Virus record (IMG/VR): IMGVR_UViG_3300031994_000043
Span: 32,001-96,000 of that record
DNA from: a virus
Lineage: Duplodnaviria; Caudoviricetes
Direction: 5' to 3' (one strand)
DNA length: 64,000 bases
The position numbers were made by a program, and so were the translations under genes. The notes beneath the pieces are model-generated. The model had not been told where the DNA came from, ran no database searches, and saw only the letters and a list, made by a program, of their open reading frames with translations. Below, piece after piece: positions 1,840-33,951 of this stretch; positions within the stretch are counted from its first letter, which is position 1; every line of letters starts with the position of its first letter.

Positions 1840-2182
1840 TTTCATAAAGGAGAATTATTAGTAACAATCTCTTTTTGGGTAACTGGGAAGTTTGAAACTT
1901 CAGCCTATTTAGGAACACTAGAACTGAAGTTTTTGATTCTTTTTGGTATAACGTATGAAGAATCACTTCTGTGGGATTTACGAATAAGCTTATGGGTCGG
2001 TCTTCCTGTACTCCAGCTACATCTTATTCAACCAAGGCGGCTATTTGTTAAACTTGCGAGGTTTAACTACGATGTTCTTTCATTCAGATGTGTACGAACT
2101 ATTACACAAAATGGCTATCCCTCTACCGATAGTGGCATTGAGTTGTACTTCGCTCCGAGGAAATAGACTTTCAAATGTCAAT
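1840..2182 (-). ncRNA. candidate structured non-coding RNA downstream of the tRNA operon
   Basis: No convincing ORF; several hairpins; own TTTACA-N17-TATATT promoter (2188-2216); ends at the 1802-1836 hairpin. Confidence 0.35.
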
Positions 2183-2247
2183 AGCCAAATATAGTAATTA
2201 TTACTTTATGTGTAAAAGTTTTTTATTTTTTAGATCTTTGGTTTTAG

Positions 2248-2320
2248 AGCCCTATTCGGGATTTGAACCCGAAACAGATGAGTGGAAGTCATCTATGTTA
2301 GCCAGTTACACTAATAGGAC
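2248..2320 (-). tRNA. tRNA-Gly(TCC)
   Basis: Cloverleaf; anticodon loop CTTCCAC; U73. Confidence 0.9.
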
Positions 2321-2329
2321 TAATGTTCG

Positions 2330-2398
2330 TTGCAGGTATGGGTGCCGACCCCACTGCCACAAAGATATGAGCTTTATGTGTATGCCGATACTCCTGCA
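2330..2398 (-). tRNA. atypical tRNA-Met/Ile2(CAT)
   Basis: Anticodon arm TAAAG-CTCATAT-CTTTG; shortened D arm; T-loop GTCGGCA. Confidence 0.65.
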
Positions 2399-2402
2399 AT
2401 AG

Positions 2403-2473
2403 TTGTTCGTGCTGGAATCGGACCAACATTAAGTGAGTCAGAGTCACCTGTACTACCGTTATACTAACGAACA
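2403..2473 (-). tRNA. tRNA-Gln(CTG)
   Basis: Cloverleaf; loop CTCTGAC. Confidence 0.9.
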
Positions 2474-2481
2474 GTAATTTA

Positions 2482-2553
2482 TCCCAATGCCGGAGAACGA
2501 TTCCGAACTTCAAGTGCCACAAACTTGCGTGCTACCAGTTACACCACACCAGG
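2482..2553 (-). tRNA. tRNA-His(GTG), atypical T-loop
   Basis: Anticodon arm CAAGT-TTGTGGC-ACTTG; T-loop ATCGTTC. Confidence 0.75.
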
Positions 2554-2563
2554 GATGAAGTAG

Positions 2564-2637
2564 TGCTCCATCAAGGACTCGGACCTTGGACTCATCGCTT
2601 AAGAGGCGATTACTCTGACCAACTGAGTTAATGGAGC
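2564..2637 (-). tRNA. tRNA-Lys(CTT)
   Basis: Cloverleaf; loop CTCTTAA. Confidence 0.92.
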
Positions 2638-2643
2638 ATTTAG

Positions 2644-2717
2644 AGCGCTTGGAGAGATTTGAACTCCCGAATCGCGGAGTTGCAGTCCGCTGCATTACCA
2701 GGCTTTGCTACAAGCGC
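2644..2717 (-). tRNA. tRNA-Cys(GCA)
   Basis: Cloverleaf; loop CTGCAAC; U73. Confidence 0.92.
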
Positions 2718-2720
2718 ATG

Positions 2721-2774
2721 AGATTACTGTGGAAATTTATTTAAATGGCGACGTATCCTCCACCACAGTAATCT
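2721..2774. repeat. 12-bp inverted repeat inside the tRNA operon
   Basis: AGATTACTGTGG-N30-CCACAGTAATCT. Confidence 0.8.
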
Positions 2775-2780
2775 TTTTAG

Positions 2781-2851
2781 AGCACCTATCCGGATTTGAA
2801 CCGGAGCTTCAACTTTGGTAAAGTCGCTTGCTACCACTACAACATAGGTGC
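2781..2851 (-). tRNA. tRNA-Gly(ACC)
   Basis: Arm CGACT-TTACCAA-AGTTG; G1-C72, C2-G71 and U73 Gly identity elements. Confidence 0.85.
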
Positions 2852-2863
2852 AAAATTTGTTCG

Positions 2864-2936
2864 TACTCCCGCCTGGATTTGAACCAGGAATACCAGGTTC
2901 GTAGCCTAGTGGTTTATCCAGTTAGCCTACGGGAGC
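2864..2936 (-). tRNA. tRNA-Arg(ACG)
   Basis: Cloverleaf; loop CTACGAA. Confidence 0.92.
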
Positions 2937-2942
2937 ATTTAG

Positions 2943-3026
2943 CGGAGAATGAGAGACTTGAACTCCCAAGTGCCGAAACACAGCGGTTTTCAGGACCGCG
3001 CCCTTACCAATTAGGGGTAATTCTCC
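2943..3026 (-). tRNA. tRNA-Ser(TGA)
   Basis: Long variable arm, G73, loop CCTGAAA (C33). Confidence 0.88.
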
Positions 3027-3030
3027 ATAG

Positions 3031-3114
3031 TAGCCCAGGTGGGAGTTGAACCCACATGCCCATAGGGCGCTTGCTTCTAAGGCAAGTACGTCTAGCCAAT
3101 TCCGTCACCAGGCC
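3031..3114 (-). tRNA. tRNA-Leu(TAG)
   Basis: Long variable arm, A73, loop CTTAGAA. Confidence 0.9.
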
Positions 3115-3128
3115 ATAATTTGTTTTAA

Positions 3129-3199
3129 CAGAAGTACCAGGACTCGGACCCAGACGAACAGACTTGGAAACTGCCATGCTACCGTTACATCATACTCCT
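3129..3199 (-). tRNA. tRNA-Trp(CCA)
   Basis: Loop TTCCAAG, G73. Confidence 0.85.
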
Positions 3200-3205
3200 A
3201 TTTAG

Positions 3206-3279
3206 CGACACCGGCGGGATTCGGACCCGCGAATGATGGTTAGACAGACCACTGTGTTAGACCACTTCACCACGATGCC
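3206..3279 (-). tRNA. tRNA-Asp(GTC)
   Basis: Loop CTGTCTA, G73. Confidence 0.9.
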
Positions 3280-3285
3280 ATATAG

Positions 3286-3360
3286 TCCATAGGGATGGAT
3301 TTGAACCATCAGTCTCCACCTTATCAGAGTGGCAAACGGAACCAATCGTTATGCCTATGG
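3286..3360 (-). tRNA. tRNA-Ile(GAT)
   Basis: Loop CTGATAA, A73; divergent D arm. Confidence 0.82.
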
Positions 3361-3372
3361 ATAATTTGTTAG

Positions 3373-3445
3373 TGCCGCCGGGTGGAATCGGACCACCGAC
3401 GCGAAGCTCTTCAGGCTTCCGCTCTACCAACTGAGCTACAGCGGC
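3373..3445 (-). tRNA. tRNA-Phe(GAA)
   Basis: Cloverleaf; loop CTGAAGA. Confidence 0.92.
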
Positions 3446-3451
3446 AAGTAG

Positions 3452-3525
3452 TGGATACAGACGGGGTTCGGACCCGTGACCTCTTCAGTGCTAATGAAGC
3501 GTTCTTCCAACTGAACTACTGACCC
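3452..3525 (-). tRNA. tRNA-Ala(AGC)
   Basis: Arm CTTCA-TTAGCAC-TGAAG; G3:U70. Confidence 0.85.
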
Positions 3526-3532
3526 AAAGTTA

Positions 3533-3607
3533 TGGACACATAAGGGATTTGAACCCTTGACATCCTGCGTGCAAGGCAGGCGTTCTACCAAACTGAACTA
3601 ATGGCCC
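3533..3607 (-). tRNA. tRNA-Ala(TGC)
   Basis: Loop CTTGCAC; G3:U70. Confidence 0.9.
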
Positions 3608-3614
3608 GTTTTCG

Positions 3615-3686
3615 TAGTACATTCGGGATTCGGACCCGAGTTTCCGCCTTGAAAGGGCAGCGAACTAACCGCTATTCTAATGTACC
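3615..3686 (-). tRNA. tRNA-Glu(TTC)
   Basis: Loop CTTTCAA. Confidence 0.9.
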
Positions 3687-3692
3687 GTTTCG

Positions 3693-3766
3693 TAGTGCTA
3701 TCCGGATTTGAACCGGAGTTTTAAGAGTGAAATTCTTATGTCCTAACCAAACTAGACGATAGCACC
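3693..3766 (-). tRNA. tRNA-Glu(TTC), first gene of the operon
   Basis: Arm TAAGA-ATTTCAC-TCTTA; Glu-like D arm. Confidence 0.85.
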
Positions 3767-3767
3767 A

Positions 3768-3805
3768 TAAAAGAAAAATCCCGTGGTTTGTGTTCCACAG
3801 GATTT
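3768..3805 (-). terminator. intrinsic terminator (attenuator) immediately upstream of the tRNA operon
   Basis: AAATCCTGTGG-AACACAAA-CCACGGGATTT followed by TTCTTTT. Confidence 0.85.
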
Positions 3806-3830
3806 AATTTGTTACGCCGGAAAATTATAA

Positions 3831-3944
3831 CTAATCAAATGCCTGTGGAGAACCTCTATCTTCGCCTGCGAATGCACCTTCAAATCGTTCGTCAATGGCG
3901 AACCAATCCTGGGCGAGGCAAATGTGGGACTTAAGCATCATCAT
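3831..3944 (-). CDS. 37-aa leader peptide of the tRNA operon (putative attenuator peptide)
   Basis: MMMLKSHICLAQDWFAIDERFEGAFAGEDRGSPQAFD*; AAGGA SD; 3' end complementary to the terminator 5' strand. Confidence 0.8.
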   Translation of the reverse strand: MMMLKSHICLAQDWFAIDERFEGAFAGEDRGSPQAFD

Positions 3945-4071
3945 AATTTCTTTTTCCTTATATTGTATATATAACTTTTAATTCCTGTTTTTTGATTCTT
4001 TTGTTAAACACATCCAAAATAATTGTTATTGGTTTTTCAACCGCTACACAATCATTTTGTTTACATAGACA

Positions 4072-4100
4072 AATATAGTTTATTGTTTTTTATTTGTCAA
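4072..4100 (-). promoter_or_regulatory. sigma70-type promoter driving leader and tRNA operon
   Basis: TTGACA (4095-4100)-N17-TATATT (4072-4077). Confidence 0.8.
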
Positions 4101-4137
4101 TGGGTAAATGTAATAATTTTGATTTTTTTGATCTTCG

Positions 4138-4608
4138 TTATTTAAAGTCTTTTGCTAATTTAGCTTCTTTGATATATTCTTGCATAGCTTTTGAGGCTTC
4201 GCTTACTTCCATCCATTTGCCAAATTTAGTAACCAACTTCTGTAACTGTTCAAAAGTCAAATTCTTACAAACAGATTCAAAATCTTTCTGTATATTCCAC
4301 CAGTCGGGAACATTAGCATATCCAGTACCGGAGTAGGCAGGCGTGTAATAAAAACTGTATCTAGTATTATTCTTAACTGTACCAATTTTTATAATAGCGT
4401 CATATCCATATCCACTGTAACCAGATGAATTGAACGTGATTTTACATTCAATTCTCGGTTTGCTTTGTAGATTGCCTATAATGTCAAAGCAATCAAACTG
4501 CCCACCGAATTTTAATGTTGCTAGCTTATCAACTGCTACTTTAATGTTTTGGGCATTAGTTATAGCATTGTCGCATAAACTTTTAATTCTTTCTTCTGCG
4601 TAACTCAT
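4138..4608 (-). CDS. hypothetical protein, DF-tail family
   Basis: GGAG SD; ends QEYIKEAKLAKDFK. Confidence 0.8.
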   Translation of the reverse strand: MSYAEERIKSLCDNAITNAQNIKVAVDKLATLKFGGQFDCFDIIGNLQSKPRIECKITFNSSGYSGYGYDAIIKIGTVKNNTRYSFYYTPAYSGTGYANVPDWWNIQKDFESVCKNLTFEQLQKLVTKFGKWMEVSEASKAMQEYIKEAKLAKDFK

Positions 4609-4675: not shown

Positions 4676-6139
4676 CTATTCTTCAATGGAGAAGAGCTGT
4701 TCAGTAGTGAGATGATACAAACACCAATCCGGGATGTAACTCTCAGTACCTGGCGTGGAAATCATAAAGATTTTCTTGAAGAAATGTTCCGGCTTCGGGA
4801 AATCAAATCCCATATCAGTGAAATAGATAATACCATCAAATTTCGCCTTTCTTTCCTTAATTGCTTCAAGAACGCATTCAGGATTCGTGCATCCGCGACC
4901 AATCAGCTTGAAGTCGGACTTCTTCTGCTTCTGTTCGGTGAATGGACCGCAAACACCATCCCAGAAACAATAGGACACATCAGCATGTTTTACGAACTTG
5001 TTCACAATCGCACAACCACGTTCCACATCCTTATCGTCCATAGAACCGGAGCAGTCAATCGCAACAAGAATACGAGAACGGAACTTATGCTTCTTACCAG
5101 GAACATCAAATCCCTTTCTACGATCTGGTCGCATACGGGTATCTTCAGTGTACTTATCCACTGTGTTCGCCTTGAATCTCTTCAGGACTGTCTTCGGGTC
5201 AAATTTCGGAGTATTGGCAGCAAGAATAGCCTGGAGCAAACCACCACTAATGTTACCCCACTGAGAAGCATTTTCTGCAATGTGGTGAGTGATTTCCTGG
5301 ATTTCCTGGTCTACCAGAGTATTTTCTTCCCAACCTTCCGTAGCCTTTTCAGCTGCGTCCTGGGAGCCGTCAAAATACTCATCCAATGCATCCTTCGTCG
5401 GGTTTCCGCTTCCGCCCTTACCCTGTTGGTTGCCCTTGCCCTGGCCCTGTCCATTACCTTGTCCCTGACCCTGGCTTTGTCCCTGACCCTTTCCTTGGCC
5501 TTGGCCTTGTCCCTGTCCTTGACCCTGTCCCTGGCCCTGTCCGCCACCACCCTGCTTTTCAGCGCAATCCATCAACATAGAGAACACCTTTTCAAGGAAC
5601 CAGTGGTCTTCTTCATTGAACTTGATTTTAGCGGTTTCTTGACGGAATTTTGCCTTGTTCGGAAATTCCTGGAGCATCTGCATAACTTCTTGCTTGTGAG
5701 TATTCAACACAGAACGCTGATTTTCGTCAAACGAGATATAGTCAGATGCCTTCTTGAAAATCTGGAGCGGGTAGCATTTACGAGTAGTGATATGGTGCAA
5801 AGCAATTCGCAAACATTCACTAAACATAATGTAAGCCAAAATGGAACATTCCTGAATCTTGTTCAACCAAATCGGGTTATATTCCATGTTGATAGCACTA
5901 CCAGTGCCACGGCAATTCAAGCGGAGAGTGACCTGCGGGTCCTTGACCGGCTTTAAATCGCACAAACCAAAATATGTGAGAACGGCAGGTTCAAACTGCA
6001 TCAACTTCACTGCTGAAGTAATGAGCTGTTCGGACTTGGAATTACATTCATCCCACAGTTCCATATATTTCTTGTTATCTTCCTTATAAAGCTGGGCAAG
6101 TTCGTCCTTGGGAAGATTTGAAATTTGAATTAGAGCCAT
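4676..6139 (-). CDS. vWA-domain protein with N-terminal metallopeptidase-like domain (DUF2201-type) and GQ linker
   Basis: MIDAS motif IDCSGSM, GRGCT, YFTDM; (GQ)n linker; adjacent to a MoxR-like ATPase. Confidence 0.85.
   Translation of the reverse strand: MALIQISNLPKDELAQLYKEDNKKYMELWDECNSKSEQLITSAVKLMQFEPAVLTYFGLCDLKPVKDPQVTLRLNCRGTGSAINMEYNPIWLNKIQECSILAYIMFSECLRIALHHITTRKCYPLQIFKKASDYISFDENQRSVLNTHKQEVMQMLQEFPNKAKFRQETAKIKFNEEDHWFLEKVFSMLMDCAEKQGGGGQGQGQGQGQGQGQGQGKGQGQSQGQGQGNGQGQGKGNQQGKGGSGNPTKDALDEYFDGSQDAAEKATEGWEENTLVDQEIQEITHHIAENASQWGNISGGLLQAILAANTPKFDPKTVLKRFKANTVDKYTEDTRMRPDRRKGFDVPGKKHKFRSRILVAIDCSGSMDDKDVERGCAIVNKFVKHADVSYCFWDGVCGPFTEQKQKKSDFKLIGRGCTNPECVLEAIKERKAKFDGIIYFTDMGFDFPKPEHFFKKIFMISTPGTESYIPDWCLYHLTTEQLFSIEE
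5400..5555 (-). repeat. Gly-Gln coding low-complexity repeat
   Basis: Imperfect hexamer repeats encoding GQGQGQ. Confidence 0.85.
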
Positions 6140-6326: not shown

Positions 6327-7532
6327 TTACTTAAATTCGTTCTGGATACGGACAATGCTAGTATAGAGAGCGTTCAGTGCGTTCACTTCCATACCATTTT
6401 CGTCCTTGACGCGGATTGGGCAGCTCTTACCGACCAACTTCGTCCACTTCTGCTTCTTTTCACGAGCAGTTTCTACTGCGTTCGTGTACACTTCCACCTG
6501 GATTTCCTTGGCGAGATGGGTGAGGAAGTAGTAGTAGTTAGTTGCGTACTTCTTGCCGAGTTCGGTCGGAGAATCAGGAGTTCCCATCTTGGATTCCTGT
6601 TCGTGGAGATACTGGCACACAGACTGTCCGAGCTGTACTGCCTCAATCTTGGACTTCTTGCAGAGGCTTTCTACCTTCTTGCCGAACTCCTTTTCAAAGT
6701 CCTTGGATTCCATAAGAGCCTTAGCATCCATACCAGTACCATGCTGAGCATAGTAGGTCTTGAACTTGGCAGCGATTGCCTGACCCACATAACCGGCACA
6801 GGATTCCTGGAGAATACCGAGACCCTTGTTGCCTTCAAACAAACCCTTTTCTGTTGCCATATCAAGGAAGTTTGCGAAATGAACCCAGGTACGGCGGGAT
6901 GGGAGAATACCATCAAAGCTCTTACCGGCCGTCTTGCTAGCCTGGGCATTGGAATACGGGTCAAGGTCACCGGAGTACTGGGAGATGTAACCCGTGACAA
7001 CGCGGTTCACACCAGCTTCAGTTGCCCAGTCAAGCCATTCCTGAACAGTCGGAGTGAAATTGTACACAACGAAACGGTCCATCTTTGCCGGGTCAAATTC
7101 TTCAACATCATAGTTACCATCGTCACCCGGATTGATGGCACAAATGACGTGTGAACCCGGAGCAAGCTTGAAGTTCAAAATCTTGTGGTCAAGGCCCAGC
7201 TGCATCATAGCATTGGTGACGAGGGTAGTACCACGGTTGATTTCATCCAGGAACAGAGTTACCGGGAGCGGATTGCCGTGTTCGTCCTTCTTATACCAAT
7301 ATGGCGGAACGAATTCGGTTTCACCAGTTTCGGAATTGATGCGAGGAAGACCAATAAGGTCACCGACATCGGAAATCTGGGAGGCCTGGAATTCAATACA
7401 GTCCTGATGCCAAACATTCTTTGCGAGCCAGCGAATGACTTCGGTCTTACCGATGCCGTGCGGGCCCTTCAACATCACGGTGTGAGAGTTAGGAGTTGCT
7501 GCGAGAACCATCTTGAGAGTCTGAATATCCAT
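6327..7532 (-). CDS. MoxR-like AAA+ ATPase
   Basis: Walker A GPHGIGKT, Walker B LFLDEINR, sensor AIN, arginine finger DPAKMDRF, PSRRTW. Confidence 0.9.
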   Translation of the reverse strand: MDIQTLKMVLAATPNSHTVMLKGPHGIGKTEVIRWLAKNVWHQDCIEFQASQISDVGDLIGLPRINSETGETEFVPPYWYKKDEHGNPLPVTLFLDEINRGTTLVTNAMMQLGLDHKILNFKLAPGSHVICAINPGDDGNYDVEEFDPAKMDRFVVYNFTPTVQEWLDWATEAGVNRVVTGYISQYSGDLDPYSNAQASKTAGKSFDGILPSRRTWVHFANFLDMATEKGLFEGNKGLGILQESCAGYVGQAIAAKFKTYYAQHGTGMDAKALMESKDFEKEFGKKVESLCKKSKIEAVQLGQSVCQYLHEQESKMGTPDSPTELGKKYATNYYYFLTHLAKEIQVEVYTNAVETAREKKQKWTKLVGKSCPIRVKDENGMEVNALNALYTSIVRIQNEFK

Positions 7533-31521: not shown

Positions 31522-33951
31522 TTATTCCACTATTGTTATACCATCCAAAGTATTATCTGTCAATACCTGTGAATACTTAATAAATTGTTTAGATTCGTAA
31601 GGTTTAATTGTGATTTTAGCACTTGTGTCTGTACTAGCAGTATGGTTCTTTCTACGAAGCCAATAGATTACATTTAATGGTAATGAATCATTTTTAACGG
31701 GGACATAAGTCAAAGTGAATACAGTATTATTAGTATAGGAATTTGTAGTTGTATTCAAAATCGTTTTATTTTCTGTTTCAGAGTATGTTGAGATGACATC
31801 GTTAGGTACATTCAAATAAGCAGAGAATTGAACATTATCAGTAGAGTTTTTCTTATTAGAAACATTCAAGAATTGTGTAGGCGTTATGTTATCTATAAGT
31901 CCTTGAATTTCTGTAATCTTTGAGTTCAATTCTTCTTTACCCATATTATATGCTTGGTCTGAATTTAGTACATCATACATTGTGTTAAATGGCAATTCAT
32001 AAGTAACAGTAGAATTATTACCATTAGCACTGTAAGCAGTAATACCACTAAATCCATATCTAGCGGAATTATGAGTGTCATAATCGGAAATAGTAATATA
32101 ACCATCTTTATTGACCGTGAAAATGTTGTGTCTATAAAAGTTAGAGTCTTTAGCTGTAGAACCAGTACCACTAATTGTTTTCATTAACTTTTCAAATGCG
32201 GTTAAATTAGTGTTCCAATCTGGTATAGCAGAAACTTGACCTTTAAGCCATTTCTTATTCATTCTACCATCACCGACTACAAGGATTTCATTTGGGTCGG
32301 TTGTATTTTGGTTGTAATAACCTAAAAGAATTTTATCGCTTTCACCACCATTTTGAATTAAACCTTCACCAATACCGATAATGTTACCAGTAGGAGCATT
32401 AACCCAACCGAATGTATTACCAATCATTGTAAGACTGTCACCACTTTCTGTTAAGTTGTATAAACCACTGAATGAGTTAATAAAGGTTGAATTTGGTTTA
32501 TGGTAGTTGTCTACGTCATCTGGACAATAACATTTACCTTTCAAATAGTTTCCATTTGAATTAACAAAAGTACAATTTTTAAGAACACCCTTTTTATATG
32601 CTGTCACTGTCTTATTATTGGCATTAACATAAGAATATGGTGAGCACTGAGCAAGAACTGTGTTATTGTTAGAGTTATAGAAAGAAATTTGAGAAGCAGA
32701 CGATTCAACCTTATTAATGAATTGTGTGTTAATTGAGTTGAAATTAGAGTTAATAAAGTTTAATTGGTTTATTTTATCGTCATTAATTTCATTATAGTCG
32801 GAATGGATGAAACTGTTGTTGTAACAATCATCAGCAATTTTGTTACCACGGGAATAAATGAAACTATTACCAAATGTTCCAGTAACGGCTGTGTGATAAA
32901 TGTTATGGTCGCCAAATAATTCAAAGTTTATTTTCTGTCTACTTGCTCCTGTAACTTCGGAGATAGTGAAATAACCTGCAGATACACCAGATGTGTATTT
33001 TATATTTAAGCGGTCACCATTCCAAGTTTTGTTAGTGCCTGTAGTAGTTTGAGCAAGTGTTATTTGTGGAACAGTAGCACTTACTTCATCATTCGTTTCT
33101 GACATTATATTTAATTTAGCGAATGAGTCATAAGATGCAGGCATTTCTAAATTAGAAATAACCAAATCGTTTATTGTTCCAGCTGCGCTTCTATTATTAT
33201 CTACATTAGTTTGTCCATCATTAACCTTTGTTAGCCCAAAAGTATTTCTCATTTGAACATTTTTGTCTTCAATAGGTCTGTTCAATGAATCTACATAGGT
33301 TGTGTCAAAAGTTGACAAATCAATTTGGTCTTTTAAAGTAATGTTTATTGCTGTATTAAATTCAACTGTAGAAGGTTGGTTATGAACAATCTGTAATTTT
33401 TCTGTATCACTCTTAAAATAAACTATTGCTAATACAACATTGGTTTGTTCTTCAATAATTCCGCCTATACTAGATTCAACTAACTCTGGTTTATATGGAA
33501 CACCAATAAGGGCGATACCATCAAAATTCAAATCATCAGAACTGTTGTTATCAATGTTCAATGAATTTGTTTTTAATGAAATGTTATAAGAGAAGGAGTT
33601 TTCACCTTCTTCACCTTCATACGAAATACCAACATCAAGCAAATAGTTATGAGTAACTAAAGCATTATTATATTGATTATAATTCTTAGGTGTATAAATG
33701 CCAGCTTCGTAAGTATAACCAATACCAGTAAAGATTAATTGTGTATAACTTTCTAATTGTTTGAAAGTCAAATTATTTAAAATTGTTTCATTTTCCAATC
33801 TCAAAGCATTTAACAAAGATTTATTTTTGTCGGAAAATAAAACAGCACCTACTTTTGCAAATTGAATACCATTAGCTTGTTTAACAAAGGTTGTTCTACC
33901 TTCATTAGTAAAGAAACATTCTACGTCGTTATAATATACACCATTTGTCAT
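31522..33951 (-). CDS. putative tail fibre/baseplate-associated protein, paralogue of the downstream gene
   Basis: Shared motifs FT..(A)NGI, SxxNxI repeats, G.YN...VVG(D/N)GR...N(I/L)F(T/S)V. Confidence 0.55.
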   Translation of the reverse strand: MTNGVYYNDVECFFTNEGRTTFVKQANGIQFAKVGAVLFSDKNKSLLNALRLENETILNNLTFKQLESYTQLIFTGIGYTYEAGIYTPKNYNQYNNALVTHNYLLDVGISYEGEEGENSFSYNISLKTNSLNIDNNSSDDLNFDGIALIGVPYKPELVESSIGGIIEEQTNVVLAIVYFKSDTEKLQIVHNQPSTVEFNTAINITLKDQIDLSTFDTTYVDSLNRPIEDKNVQMRNTFGLTKVNDGQTNVDNNRSAAGTINDLVISNLEMPASYDSFAKLNIMSETNDEVSATVPQITLAQTTTGTNKTWNGDRLNIKYTSGVSAGYFTISEVTGASRQKINFELFGDHNIYHTAVTGTFGNSFIYSRGNKIADDCYNNSFIHSDYNEINDDKINQLNFINSNFNSINTQFINKVESSASQISFYNSNNNTVLAQCSPYSYVNANNKTVTAYKKGVLKNCTFVNSNGNYLKGKCYCPDDVDNYHKPNSTFINSFSGLYNLTESGDSLTMIGNTFGWVNAPTGNIIGIGEGLIQNGGESDKILLGYYNQNTTDPNEILVVGDGRMNKKWLKGQVSAIPDWNTNLTAFEKLMKTISGTGSTAKDSNFYRHNIFTVNKDGYITISDYDTHNSARYGFSGITAYSANGNNSTVTYELPFNTMYDVLNSDQAYNMGKEELNSKITEIQGLIDNITPTQFLNVSNKKNSTDNVQFSAYLNVPNDVISTYSETENKTILNTTTNSYTNNTVFTLTYVPVKNDSLPLNVIYWLRRKNHTASTDTSAKITIKPYESKQFIKYSQVLTDNTLDGITIVE

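Follow-up and report, generated by a model that had tools for sequence, protein, structure and literature searches.

A putative leader-peptide attenuator, biased toward the codons of the tRNAs that it precedes, in an uncultured rumen phage

A 64,000-nucleotide stretch of DNA (the window; positions 32,001 to 96,000 of IMG/VR virus record IMGVR_UViG_3300031994_000043) forms part of a 109-kb record of an uncultured virus of the Caudoviricetes. On its minus strand, an array of transfer RNA (tRNA) genes is preceded by a promoter, a short open reading frame (ORF), and an intrinsic terminator whose 5′ strand can pair instead with the end of the ORF. The anatomy of this leader region and its conservation among relatives make it very likely that it is a ribosome-mediated attenuator, when the two attenuator readings considered below are taken together. 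The best single reading, to which we give roughly even credence, is that it is a leader-peptide transcription attenuator of the first tRNA array and that the leader is written in the codons of the tRNAs in that array.

All of the leader and array elements are on the minus strand, and a gene for a 156-amino-acid protein ends at position 4138, upstream of the promoter. The promoter is of the sigma-70 type, TTGACA-17-TATATT (4072-4100), and matches the consensus at 11 of 12 positions. It was already noted in an earlier reading of this DNA from the sequence alone (the sequence-only reading), and it is the presumed start of the leader transcript. In an alignment, both hexamers are kept across the three lineages of relatives described below. 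An untranslated stretch of about 120 nucleotides (nt) separates the promoter from the ORF and ends in the motif TATATATACAATAT (3960-3973), followed by a Shine-Dalgarno-like AAGGA (3955-3959), which lies 10 nt before the first ATG and is kept in all lineages. The motif has one mismatch to the phage late-promoter consensus (TATAAATA plus an extension). The T4-type late-promoter motif TATAAATA has 30 copies in the genome, mostly just upstream of genes. The exact 14-mer TATATATACAATAT has two copies in the 109-kb genome, each before a small ORF and a terminator that precede a tRNA cluster. The motif possibly provides a second, late start just upstream of the ORF, if it functions as the promoter that it resembles.

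The leader ORF (3831-3944) consists of 37 codons and a UAG stop, with three ATG codons in its start region, and both start and frame are kept in the three lineages. The amino acid composition of the peptide agreed with that given in the sequence-only reading, and comprises 16 different amino acids in 37 residues, none of them occurring more than five times. Codons 1 to 23 are nearly invariant in lineages 1 and 3. The C-terminal third is hypervariable, having been rewritten at least eight times with different endings and with two stop positions.

The terminator that had been described before tRNA-Glu is also present. Its hairpin (3776-3805) has a stem of 11 base pairs (bp), 5 of which are G-C pairs, and an 8-nt loop. 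The U tract (UUUUUCUUUUAU, 3767-3778) reaches the 5′ end of the first tRNA, tRNA-Glu, which starts at 3766. The first three U residues of the tract (3778-3776) also pair with A residues at the foot of the terminator stem, and the distance from the end of the hairpin to tRNA-Glu is 9 nt. No promoter-like site was found on the minus strand between the terminator and the end of the array, and thus the array can be transcribed only through the terminator.

Folding of the leader to minimum free energy gives not the terminator but an antiterminator, a 21-bp interrupted hairpin. This fold bears out the proposal that the end of the ORF pairs with the 5′ strand of the terminator. Segment A, the 5′ strand of the antiterminator (UCCACAGG/AUUUGAUU/GUUAU; 3849-3827), includes the Pro codon CCA and the UAG stop (3833-3831) and pairs with segment B, the 3′ strand (GUAAC/AAUUAAAU/CCUGUGGA; 3815-3794). 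The last 12 nt of segment B (3805-3794) overlap the terminator: positions 3805-3795 make up all of the 5′ side of its stem, and the loop begins at 3794. The antiterminator and the terminator are mutually exclusive because both use the same bases. Folded alone, the antiterminator has a free energy of -22.7 kcal/mol, versus -15.0 kcal/mol for the terminator. Shuffled versions of strand A in the window gave -13.1 ± 2.9 kcal/mol, and 2 of 300 shuffles equaled the real strand.

Relatives of the leader were sought with a 21-nt pattern taken from the hairpin loop and strand B, which was picked to avoid biasing the ORF and which recovered 17 metagenome contigs. Eight further contigs came from look-ups of the neighboring protein and two from a protein search of the whole library. 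The leader cassette is found in about 25 related metagenome contigs, always upstream of a tRNA array, and the cassettes sort into three diverged lineages. Lineage 1 has the window's type of leader. Lineage 3 is exemplified by the leader at positions 13133-13243 of contig L017 (L017:13133-13243). Lineage 2 is much more diverged (about 60% different) and has a leader of 43 codons (for example, L024:2425-2556). In contig L024, homing-endonuclease-like ORFs follow the leader terminator, and no tRNA was found within the 789 nt examined. The sequence-only reading had compared the geometry of the leader to that of trp-type attenuators, and the layout in question (a promoter, a short ORF, a stop codon in the antiterminator strand, and a terminator before the tRNAs) is kept in the three lineages.

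Both hairpins are retained among these relatives. Across 12 distinct sequences, 96.5% of the terminator cells are paired, and two pairs show compensatory changes on both sides (U-G to A-U and G-C to U-A). No shifted register performs nearly as well. In the window's register, the antiterminator is 81.7% paired across relatives, and one-sided changes preserve its pairs (C-G to U-G and G-U to A-U). For example, C-to-U and G-to-A changes in strand A of L008, L017, and L030 leave the pairs intact. In L027, changes on both strands keep the helix and close an internal mismatch. The B strand of lineage 2 differs and pairs, in another register, with another stretch around that lineage's own stop codon. 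When each lineage was folded separately, the antiterminator came to -16.5 to -23 kcal/mol versus -15 to -17 kcal/mol for the terminator, and in each lineage no more than 14 of 300 strand-A shuffles matched the real antiterminator. The hairpin loop UUUCCGGCG is invariant in all lineages. In every variant the stop codon lies within strand A. It occupies one of two positions, that of the window or one located 13 nt upstream, created by a change of CCA-CAG to CCA-UAG.

In the mechanism that we propose, transcription would start at the 4100-4072 promoter and perhaps also at the late-type start near 3960. In the absence of a ribosome, segment A would pair with segment B once B has been made, which would tie up the 5′ strand of the terminator and permit read-through. 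Because strand B is made before the 3′ strand of the terminator, read-through should be the default, ribosome-free state. A fast ribosome that has arrived at the stop codon would mask segment A; segment B would then pair with segment C, the terminator would form, and transcripts would end 0 to 9 nt before tRNA-Glu. The speed of leader translation would report the supply of exactly those tRNAs that the array encodes, because nearly all of the codons outside the structural segment are in boxes read by the array. A shortage of these tRNAs would leave a lagging or stalled ribosome and increase transcription of the array, and an ample supply would lead to termination. The outcome would be a negative-feedback homeostat of the phage tRNA supply, and any loss of those tRNAs would trigger it as well. 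In four lineages the best duplex between the early ORF and strand A was no better than those obtained with shuffles; that is, no upstream segment 1 was found, and therefore the design is one of two hairpins rather than the four segments of trp.

The leader peptide ends in Pro-UAG in four independently rewritten endings (L008, L027, L029, L030-L033, and lineage 2, e.g., L024:2425-2556). A C-terminal Pro is known to slow peptide release, which could keep the ribosome in place over the antiterminator strand at such endings. Pairing also depends on the CC of the Pro codon, however, and its role may be structural only.

The bias of the leader toward codons read by the array is frame specific and statistically solid. 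Of the 37 codons, 35 are in boxes read by the downstream tRNAs, and the two exceptions, AGA and CCA, are read by a second tRNA cluster of the same genome. The leader uses AAG rather than AAA, CAG rather than CAA, and CUN rather than UUR, together with CGA, UCN, GCN, GGN, GAN, UUY, AUU, UGG, UGC, CAC, and AUG. As the sequence-only reading had pointed out, AAG and both CAG codons match the encoded Lys(CTT) and Gln(CTG), and AGA is unmatched; CCA is unmatched as well. A score of 35 of 37 was reached in none of 20,000 composition-preserving open shuffles and in 0.11% of 37-codon windows of the phage's own genes, and no gene window combined this score with a codon for every amino acid that the array serves. 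In the other five frames of the same DNA, 47 to 73% of codons are in array boxes. The codon usage of the phage genes is 55% array boxes and 38% boxes of the second cluster.

The bias is also evident within codon families. In the families that are split between the two clusters (Lys, Gln, Leu, Arg, and Ser), the leader uses the array's box in eight of nine cases (P = 0.012), and the lineage-2 leader does so in 9 of 11 (P = 0.031), mostly at nonhomologous codons. Of the 15 codons from two-fold families that the array alone reads, 5 end in G or C versus 4.3 expected. This lack of an excess indicates that general G+C pressure does not explain the codon bias. The lineage-2 leader has 35 of its 43 codons in boxes of its own array (P of about 0.007 to 0.05). 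Mismatched codons concentrate in the structural 3′ segment; in lineage 2, the four mismatches other than Ile are the last four codons, within strand A. The lineage-2 leader also has an unbroken run of 39 codons that fall in boxes of the array pooled over the lineages, and this run exceeds any in the phage's 118 longest ORFs. In 13 of the 14 leader/array pairs, the leader has a codon for every amino acid that the array serves. Enrichment in rare codons was only mild (percentiles of 15%, 2.5%, and 2.2% on a measure like the codon adaptation index) and was set aside as a signal.

The array (2247-3766) contains 17 canonical tRNAs, called with ARAGORN and Rfam: two each for Glu, Ala, and Gly and one each for Phe, Ile, Asp, Trp, Leu, Ser, Arg, Cys, Lys, His, and Gln. 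These serve 14 amino acids. The sequence-only reading had counted 18 tRNAs for 15 amino acids, and its 18th, with the anticodon CAT (about 2330-2399, minus strand), was called by neither program. This element folds into a noncanonical cloverleaf in which the acceptor stem has 7 bp, the D loop has 4 nt, and the T loop is aberrant. Its conservation extends to L001, and it may represent either a decoy or an unusual Met/Ile tRNA.

A second, dispersed tRNA cluster is located outside the window in the same genome, 8 to 15 kb downstream. It encodes tRNAs for Asn, Thr, Tyr, Pro, Lys(TTT), Gln(TTG), Arg(TCT), Leu(TAA), Leu(CAA), and Ser(ACT), so that the genetic code is divided between two clusters, with the second reading AAA, CAA, UUR, AGA, and the Asn, Thr, Tyr, and Pro codons. 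It had been stated that the phage operon has no tRNA for Asn, Thr, or Tyr; this is true of the array, but these tRNAs, and that for Pro, are in the second cluster. The suggestion that the leader senses the whole tRNA set was therefore too broad, because the second cluster is not sampled by the leader.

A cassette before the second cluster (genome positions 27084-26925, minus strand), about 4.9 kb before the start of the window, also has TATATATACAATAT, a 24-codon ORF, and a terminator, and was evaluated as a second attenuator. It was not counted as support. An alternative pairing is possible there, but the minimum-free-energy fold does not use it. The codon content, with 12 of the 24 codons in that cluster's boxes, does not reach significance. 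The terminator is separated from the tRNAs by two sigma-70-type promoters, and the codons vary freely among relatives.

Two groups of observations weigh against the reading of the leader as an attenuator tuned to the tRNAs of its array. The first concerns the correspondence between leader and array. The expectation from the sequence-only reading that leader codons would co-vary with array content among relatives was not borne out at a fine scale. Contig L016 has lost the Phe and Val tRNAs, and its leader keeps their codons. Codons are likewise retained where the Ser, Arg, Gly(ACC), Cys, Lys, and Val tRNAs (L030-L033), the Gln tRNA (L014), or Arg(ACG) (L027 and L034) have been lost. L028 has the window's leader, which is without a Val codon, yet tRNA-Val is present. 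In five independent contigs of lineage 2, the leader has four Ile codons and the Ile(GAT) tRNA is missing. Only two cases fit a correspondence: lineage 2 has gained both tRNA-Asn and four Asn codons, and the window has neither tRNA-Val nor Val codons. Among relatives, arrays change as tRNAs are lost and homing-endonuclease-like ORFs are inserted, and the leaders do not follow. Furthermore, the lineage-2 leader matches the window's array about as well as its own, and thus the codon signal reflects a shared bias rather than tracking. The failed co-variation leads to the conclusion that the codon bias is an old, shared property of the leader and not an updated record of the array. All of the significance tests were framed after the pattern had been seen, and the P values are only indicative because the lineages are related to one another.

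As a single-site candidate for tracking, the Phe or Val at codon 25, which differs between the window and L001, was compared with the presence of tRNA-Val. It was rejected because this codon encodes Phe in L028, which does have a Val tRNA, and Val in L016 and L030-L033, which do not.

The strongest form of sensing would be a codon-by-codon census, in which a shortage of any of about 15 tRNAs, whether caused by codon demand or by host anticodon nucleases, stalls the ribosome and switches on replacements. We regard this form as tentative and somewhat unlikely. A role against tRNA-cleaving defenses of the PrrC/PARIS type would follow logically from such a sensor and is purely speculative.

A less demanding possibility is that the attenuator senses only the general state of translation, or the coupling of transcription and translation, for instance through the availability of ribosomes or a global slowdown late in infection. 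The codon bias would then be a by-product of inherited composition or of the avoidance of A-rich codons for RNA folding. The architecture and its conservation fit such a sensor equally well. The failure of leaders to track the gain and loss of individual tRNAs and the equal fit of the lineage-2 leader to two arrays are also consistent with it, as is the conservation of codons 1 to 23 and the 5′ untranslated region at the nucleotide level beyond the needs of a codon census. However, a general sensor has no reason to avoid the approximately 38% of the phage's codon usage that is read by the second cluster, and that cluster reads only 2 of the 37 leader codons. The bias is confined to one frame, survives composition-preserving shuffles, and appears in split codon families without a rise of GC-ending codons elsewhere. 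We therefore consider a general sensor unlikely. Tuning to the array tRNAs is favored as the best single reading because a general sensor need not avoid 38% of normal codon usage in one frame.

The second group of observations that weigh against a tuned leader-peptide attenuator concerns translation and pairing. The stretch is open in three to five of six frames, depending on the lineage, so retention of the ORF is by itself weak evidence for translation. The spacing of the Shine-Dalgarno-like element is 9 to 11 nt across lineages, at the long edge of the range in this phage's genes, in which it is mostly 5 to 9 nt. The ratio of nonsynonymous to synonymous changes between lineages (pN/pS) is about 0.8, a value that would nevertheless be expected for a leader if its peptide had no independent function. 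The 5′ untranslated region is conserved as strongly as the ORF, which hints at an additional RNA- or DNA-level function. Compensatory changes, which the sequence-only reading had proposed to look for in both stems, were found in the terminator but not in the antiterminator, in which there was no strict two-sided covariation in a fixed register. Translation of the ORF, function of the terminator, the direction of the switch, and the sensed signal are all inferred.

The evidence for translation of the ORF is nonetheless moderate. A pair of ATG codons and the purine-rich Shine-Dalgarno-like element are retained in all lineages. Where insertions or deletions within the ORF are unambiguous, their lengths preserve the frame (6 nt in L007 and 3 nt in L017). 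Five of the eight variable sites in codons 1 to 23 (lineages 1 and 3) are at third positions. The match of the codons to the array is seen in this frame only. Among contigs from metatranscriptomes, one covers 3523-4269 and another covers the whole stretch, so that leader and tRNAs are contiguous in RNA libraries; the ends, strand, and level of the transcripts are not readable from these contigs and carried-over DNA is possible, so they were used as evidence neither way.

Several of these features could also be expected if the ORF were an ordinary small gene, or if the promoter and terminator delimited a small RNA of about 190 to 290 nt, with a leaky terminator of its own. Constitutive partial read-through would then supply the tRNAs, and the alternative hairpin would have no regulatory role. 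Codons 1 to 23 that are almost invariant in lineages 1 and 3 and change mostly at third positions, the peptide motifs I-C-x3-D-W and G-A-F-A-G that the lineages have in common, and the strongly conserved 5′ untranslated region all suit a conserved product, and leaky terminators that set expression ratios are common in phages. We nevertheless judge this explanation improbable, slightly more so than that of a general sensor. The C-terminal third has been rewritten repeatedly, and each time the pairing with the terminator strand has been kept. The pN/pS value between lineages is about 0.8. PHROGs has no family for the leader peptide. A search of 1.8 billion representative proteins yielded, apart from two spurious matches to long proteins, only two variants of this leader. 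A strong promoter of its own and a terminator about 300 nt downstream, on what is the sole route to 17 tRNAs, are the signature of an attenuator.

If the reading frame were fortuitous, the choice between the hairpins could be made by a protein, a small RNA, or a tRNA acting on an untranslated leader. The several open frames, the long Shine-Dalgarno-like spacing, the loop and entire B strand, scored as invariant across lineages, and the nucleotide conservation that reaches into the untranslated region are consistent with such a riboregulator. It is the least probable of the explanations considered, and we think it very unlikely. The leader (3767-4100) has no match in Rfam at E values of up to 10 and, in particular, no T-box; the pair of ATG codons and the Shine-Dalgarno-like element are kept in all lineages, with the stop codon always within strand A; and the codon match is limited to one frame, in which the unambiguous insertions or deletions are of 6 and 3 nt.

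A leader-peptide attenuator tuned to its tRNAs would have clear parallels in known systems. The enterobacterial trpL, hisL, leuL, and pheL leaders likewise have a promoter-proximal short ORF, an intrinsic terminator, and a mutually exclusive antiterminator. As here, a ribosome at the stop codon masks a strand of the antiterminator and a lagging ribosome leaves it free. Unlike the trpL type, the phage leader has no run of codons for a single amino acid, no tandem or clustered cognate codons, and no segment 1. Without segment 1, a lack of translation should result in read-through and not in superattenuation. The regulated genes also differ, being tRNAs rather than biosynthetic enzymes, and the element is phage encoded. 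The ilvGMEDA (Leu/Val/Ile) and thr (Thr/Ile) leaders resemble the phage leader in that several amino acids are represented in one leader and a shortage of any of them induces. However, those leaders have clustered repeats for two or three amino acids, whereas the phage leader has 14 to 16 amino acids, mostly with one to five codons each, spread over the ORF.

Control of a component of the decoding machinery by the decoding of a leader is exemplified by pheST and its pheM leader. There a single charged tRNA is sensed and the controlled gene is a synthetase, whereas the phage leader would control tRNAs as such, closing a direct feedback loop. T-box riboswitches also report tRNA status through a choice between terminator and antiterminator, but they bind uncharged tRNA directly, without an ORF, and the phage leader matches neither the T-box nor any other Rfam family. 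The upstream-ORF attenuators of antibiotic-resistance genes in Firmicutes, identified with Term-seq, have two hairpins, and a ribosome stalled anywhere in the ORF blocks the terminator. These attenuators respond to drug-stalled ribosomes and have no codon matching to the genes that they regulate.

The type of mechanism is thus classical. What is new is its target (tRNA genes), its codon breadth, and its two-hairpin, default-on logic. Searches of the open-access full-text literature turned up no account of phage or cellular tRNA genes being controlled through a leader peptide. For about 50 years there has been debate over whether phage tRNA genes serve codon compensation or, in a more recent view, replace tRNAs cut by host defenses, and the genes are usually regarded as constitutively expressed cargo. 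If the leader functions as proposed, then the phage measures the tRNA supply and regulates its own tRNAs by feedback. Leader-peptide attenuation would be extended from amino acid and synthetase genes to tRNA genes, and the number of sensed amino acids would rise from between one and three to about fifteen.

Related sequence was found in gut or rumen samples of sheep, goat, and cattle, and the stretch or part of it is present in 20 sequencing runs from 12 studies. With these runs and 137 variants of the neighboring protein, the lineage is abundant in the rumen of sheep, goats, and cattle, which makes natural variation and metatranscriptomes available for study. The phage has no close cultured relative. 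A blastn search against 50,697 phage records gave no match, and scans of IMG/VR with three patterns and two proteins gave only one close relative.

Just upstream of the leader are genes for a MoxR-type AAA ATPase and a 487-amino-acid protein with a long Gly/Gln repeat (4676-6139 and 6327-7532, minus strand). The 487-amino-acid protein looks like a von Willebrand-A-type partner, a candidate reading. These two proteins are the sole neighbors kept, to 50% identity, in more distant phages (L002 and L003). The layout before the tRNAs differs in L003 (10320-10564), in which the 487-amino-acid protein is 50% identical: a TTGACA-17-TATATT promoter precedes an ORF of 50 codons, only 5 nt separate the end of this ORF from tRNA-Leu, and no terminator was detected.

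Three of the tRNAs in the window's array have A at the wobble position: Gly(ACC) (2780-2851), Ala(AGC) (3453-3525), and Arg(ACG) (2863-2936), all on the minus strand. A34 is usual in bacterial Arg tRNA and unusual in Gly and Ala tRNAs. In some relatives (L007, L028, and L029), Gly(GCC) replaces Gly(ACC). The arrays of relatives are broken at differing places by inserts of 0.6 to 1.2 kb with endonuclease-like ORFs, one of which matches DUF559. Such inserts are found in L001 (9440-10083), in the arrays of L015, L016, L029, and L030-L034, and in L024 (2640-3358) directly after the leader terminator, and several of them coincide with missing tRNAs.

Directly downstream of the array, the window contains a full-length match to the cow-rumen-2 RNA of Rfam (1969-2073, minus strand; 105 bits, E value of 1e-20), behind its own TTTACA-17-TATATT promoter-like site at 2216-2188. 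The same RNA is in the same place in L011, L014, L016, and L022. This placement indicates that an orphan rumen RNA motif is phage encoded and tied to the tRNA array.

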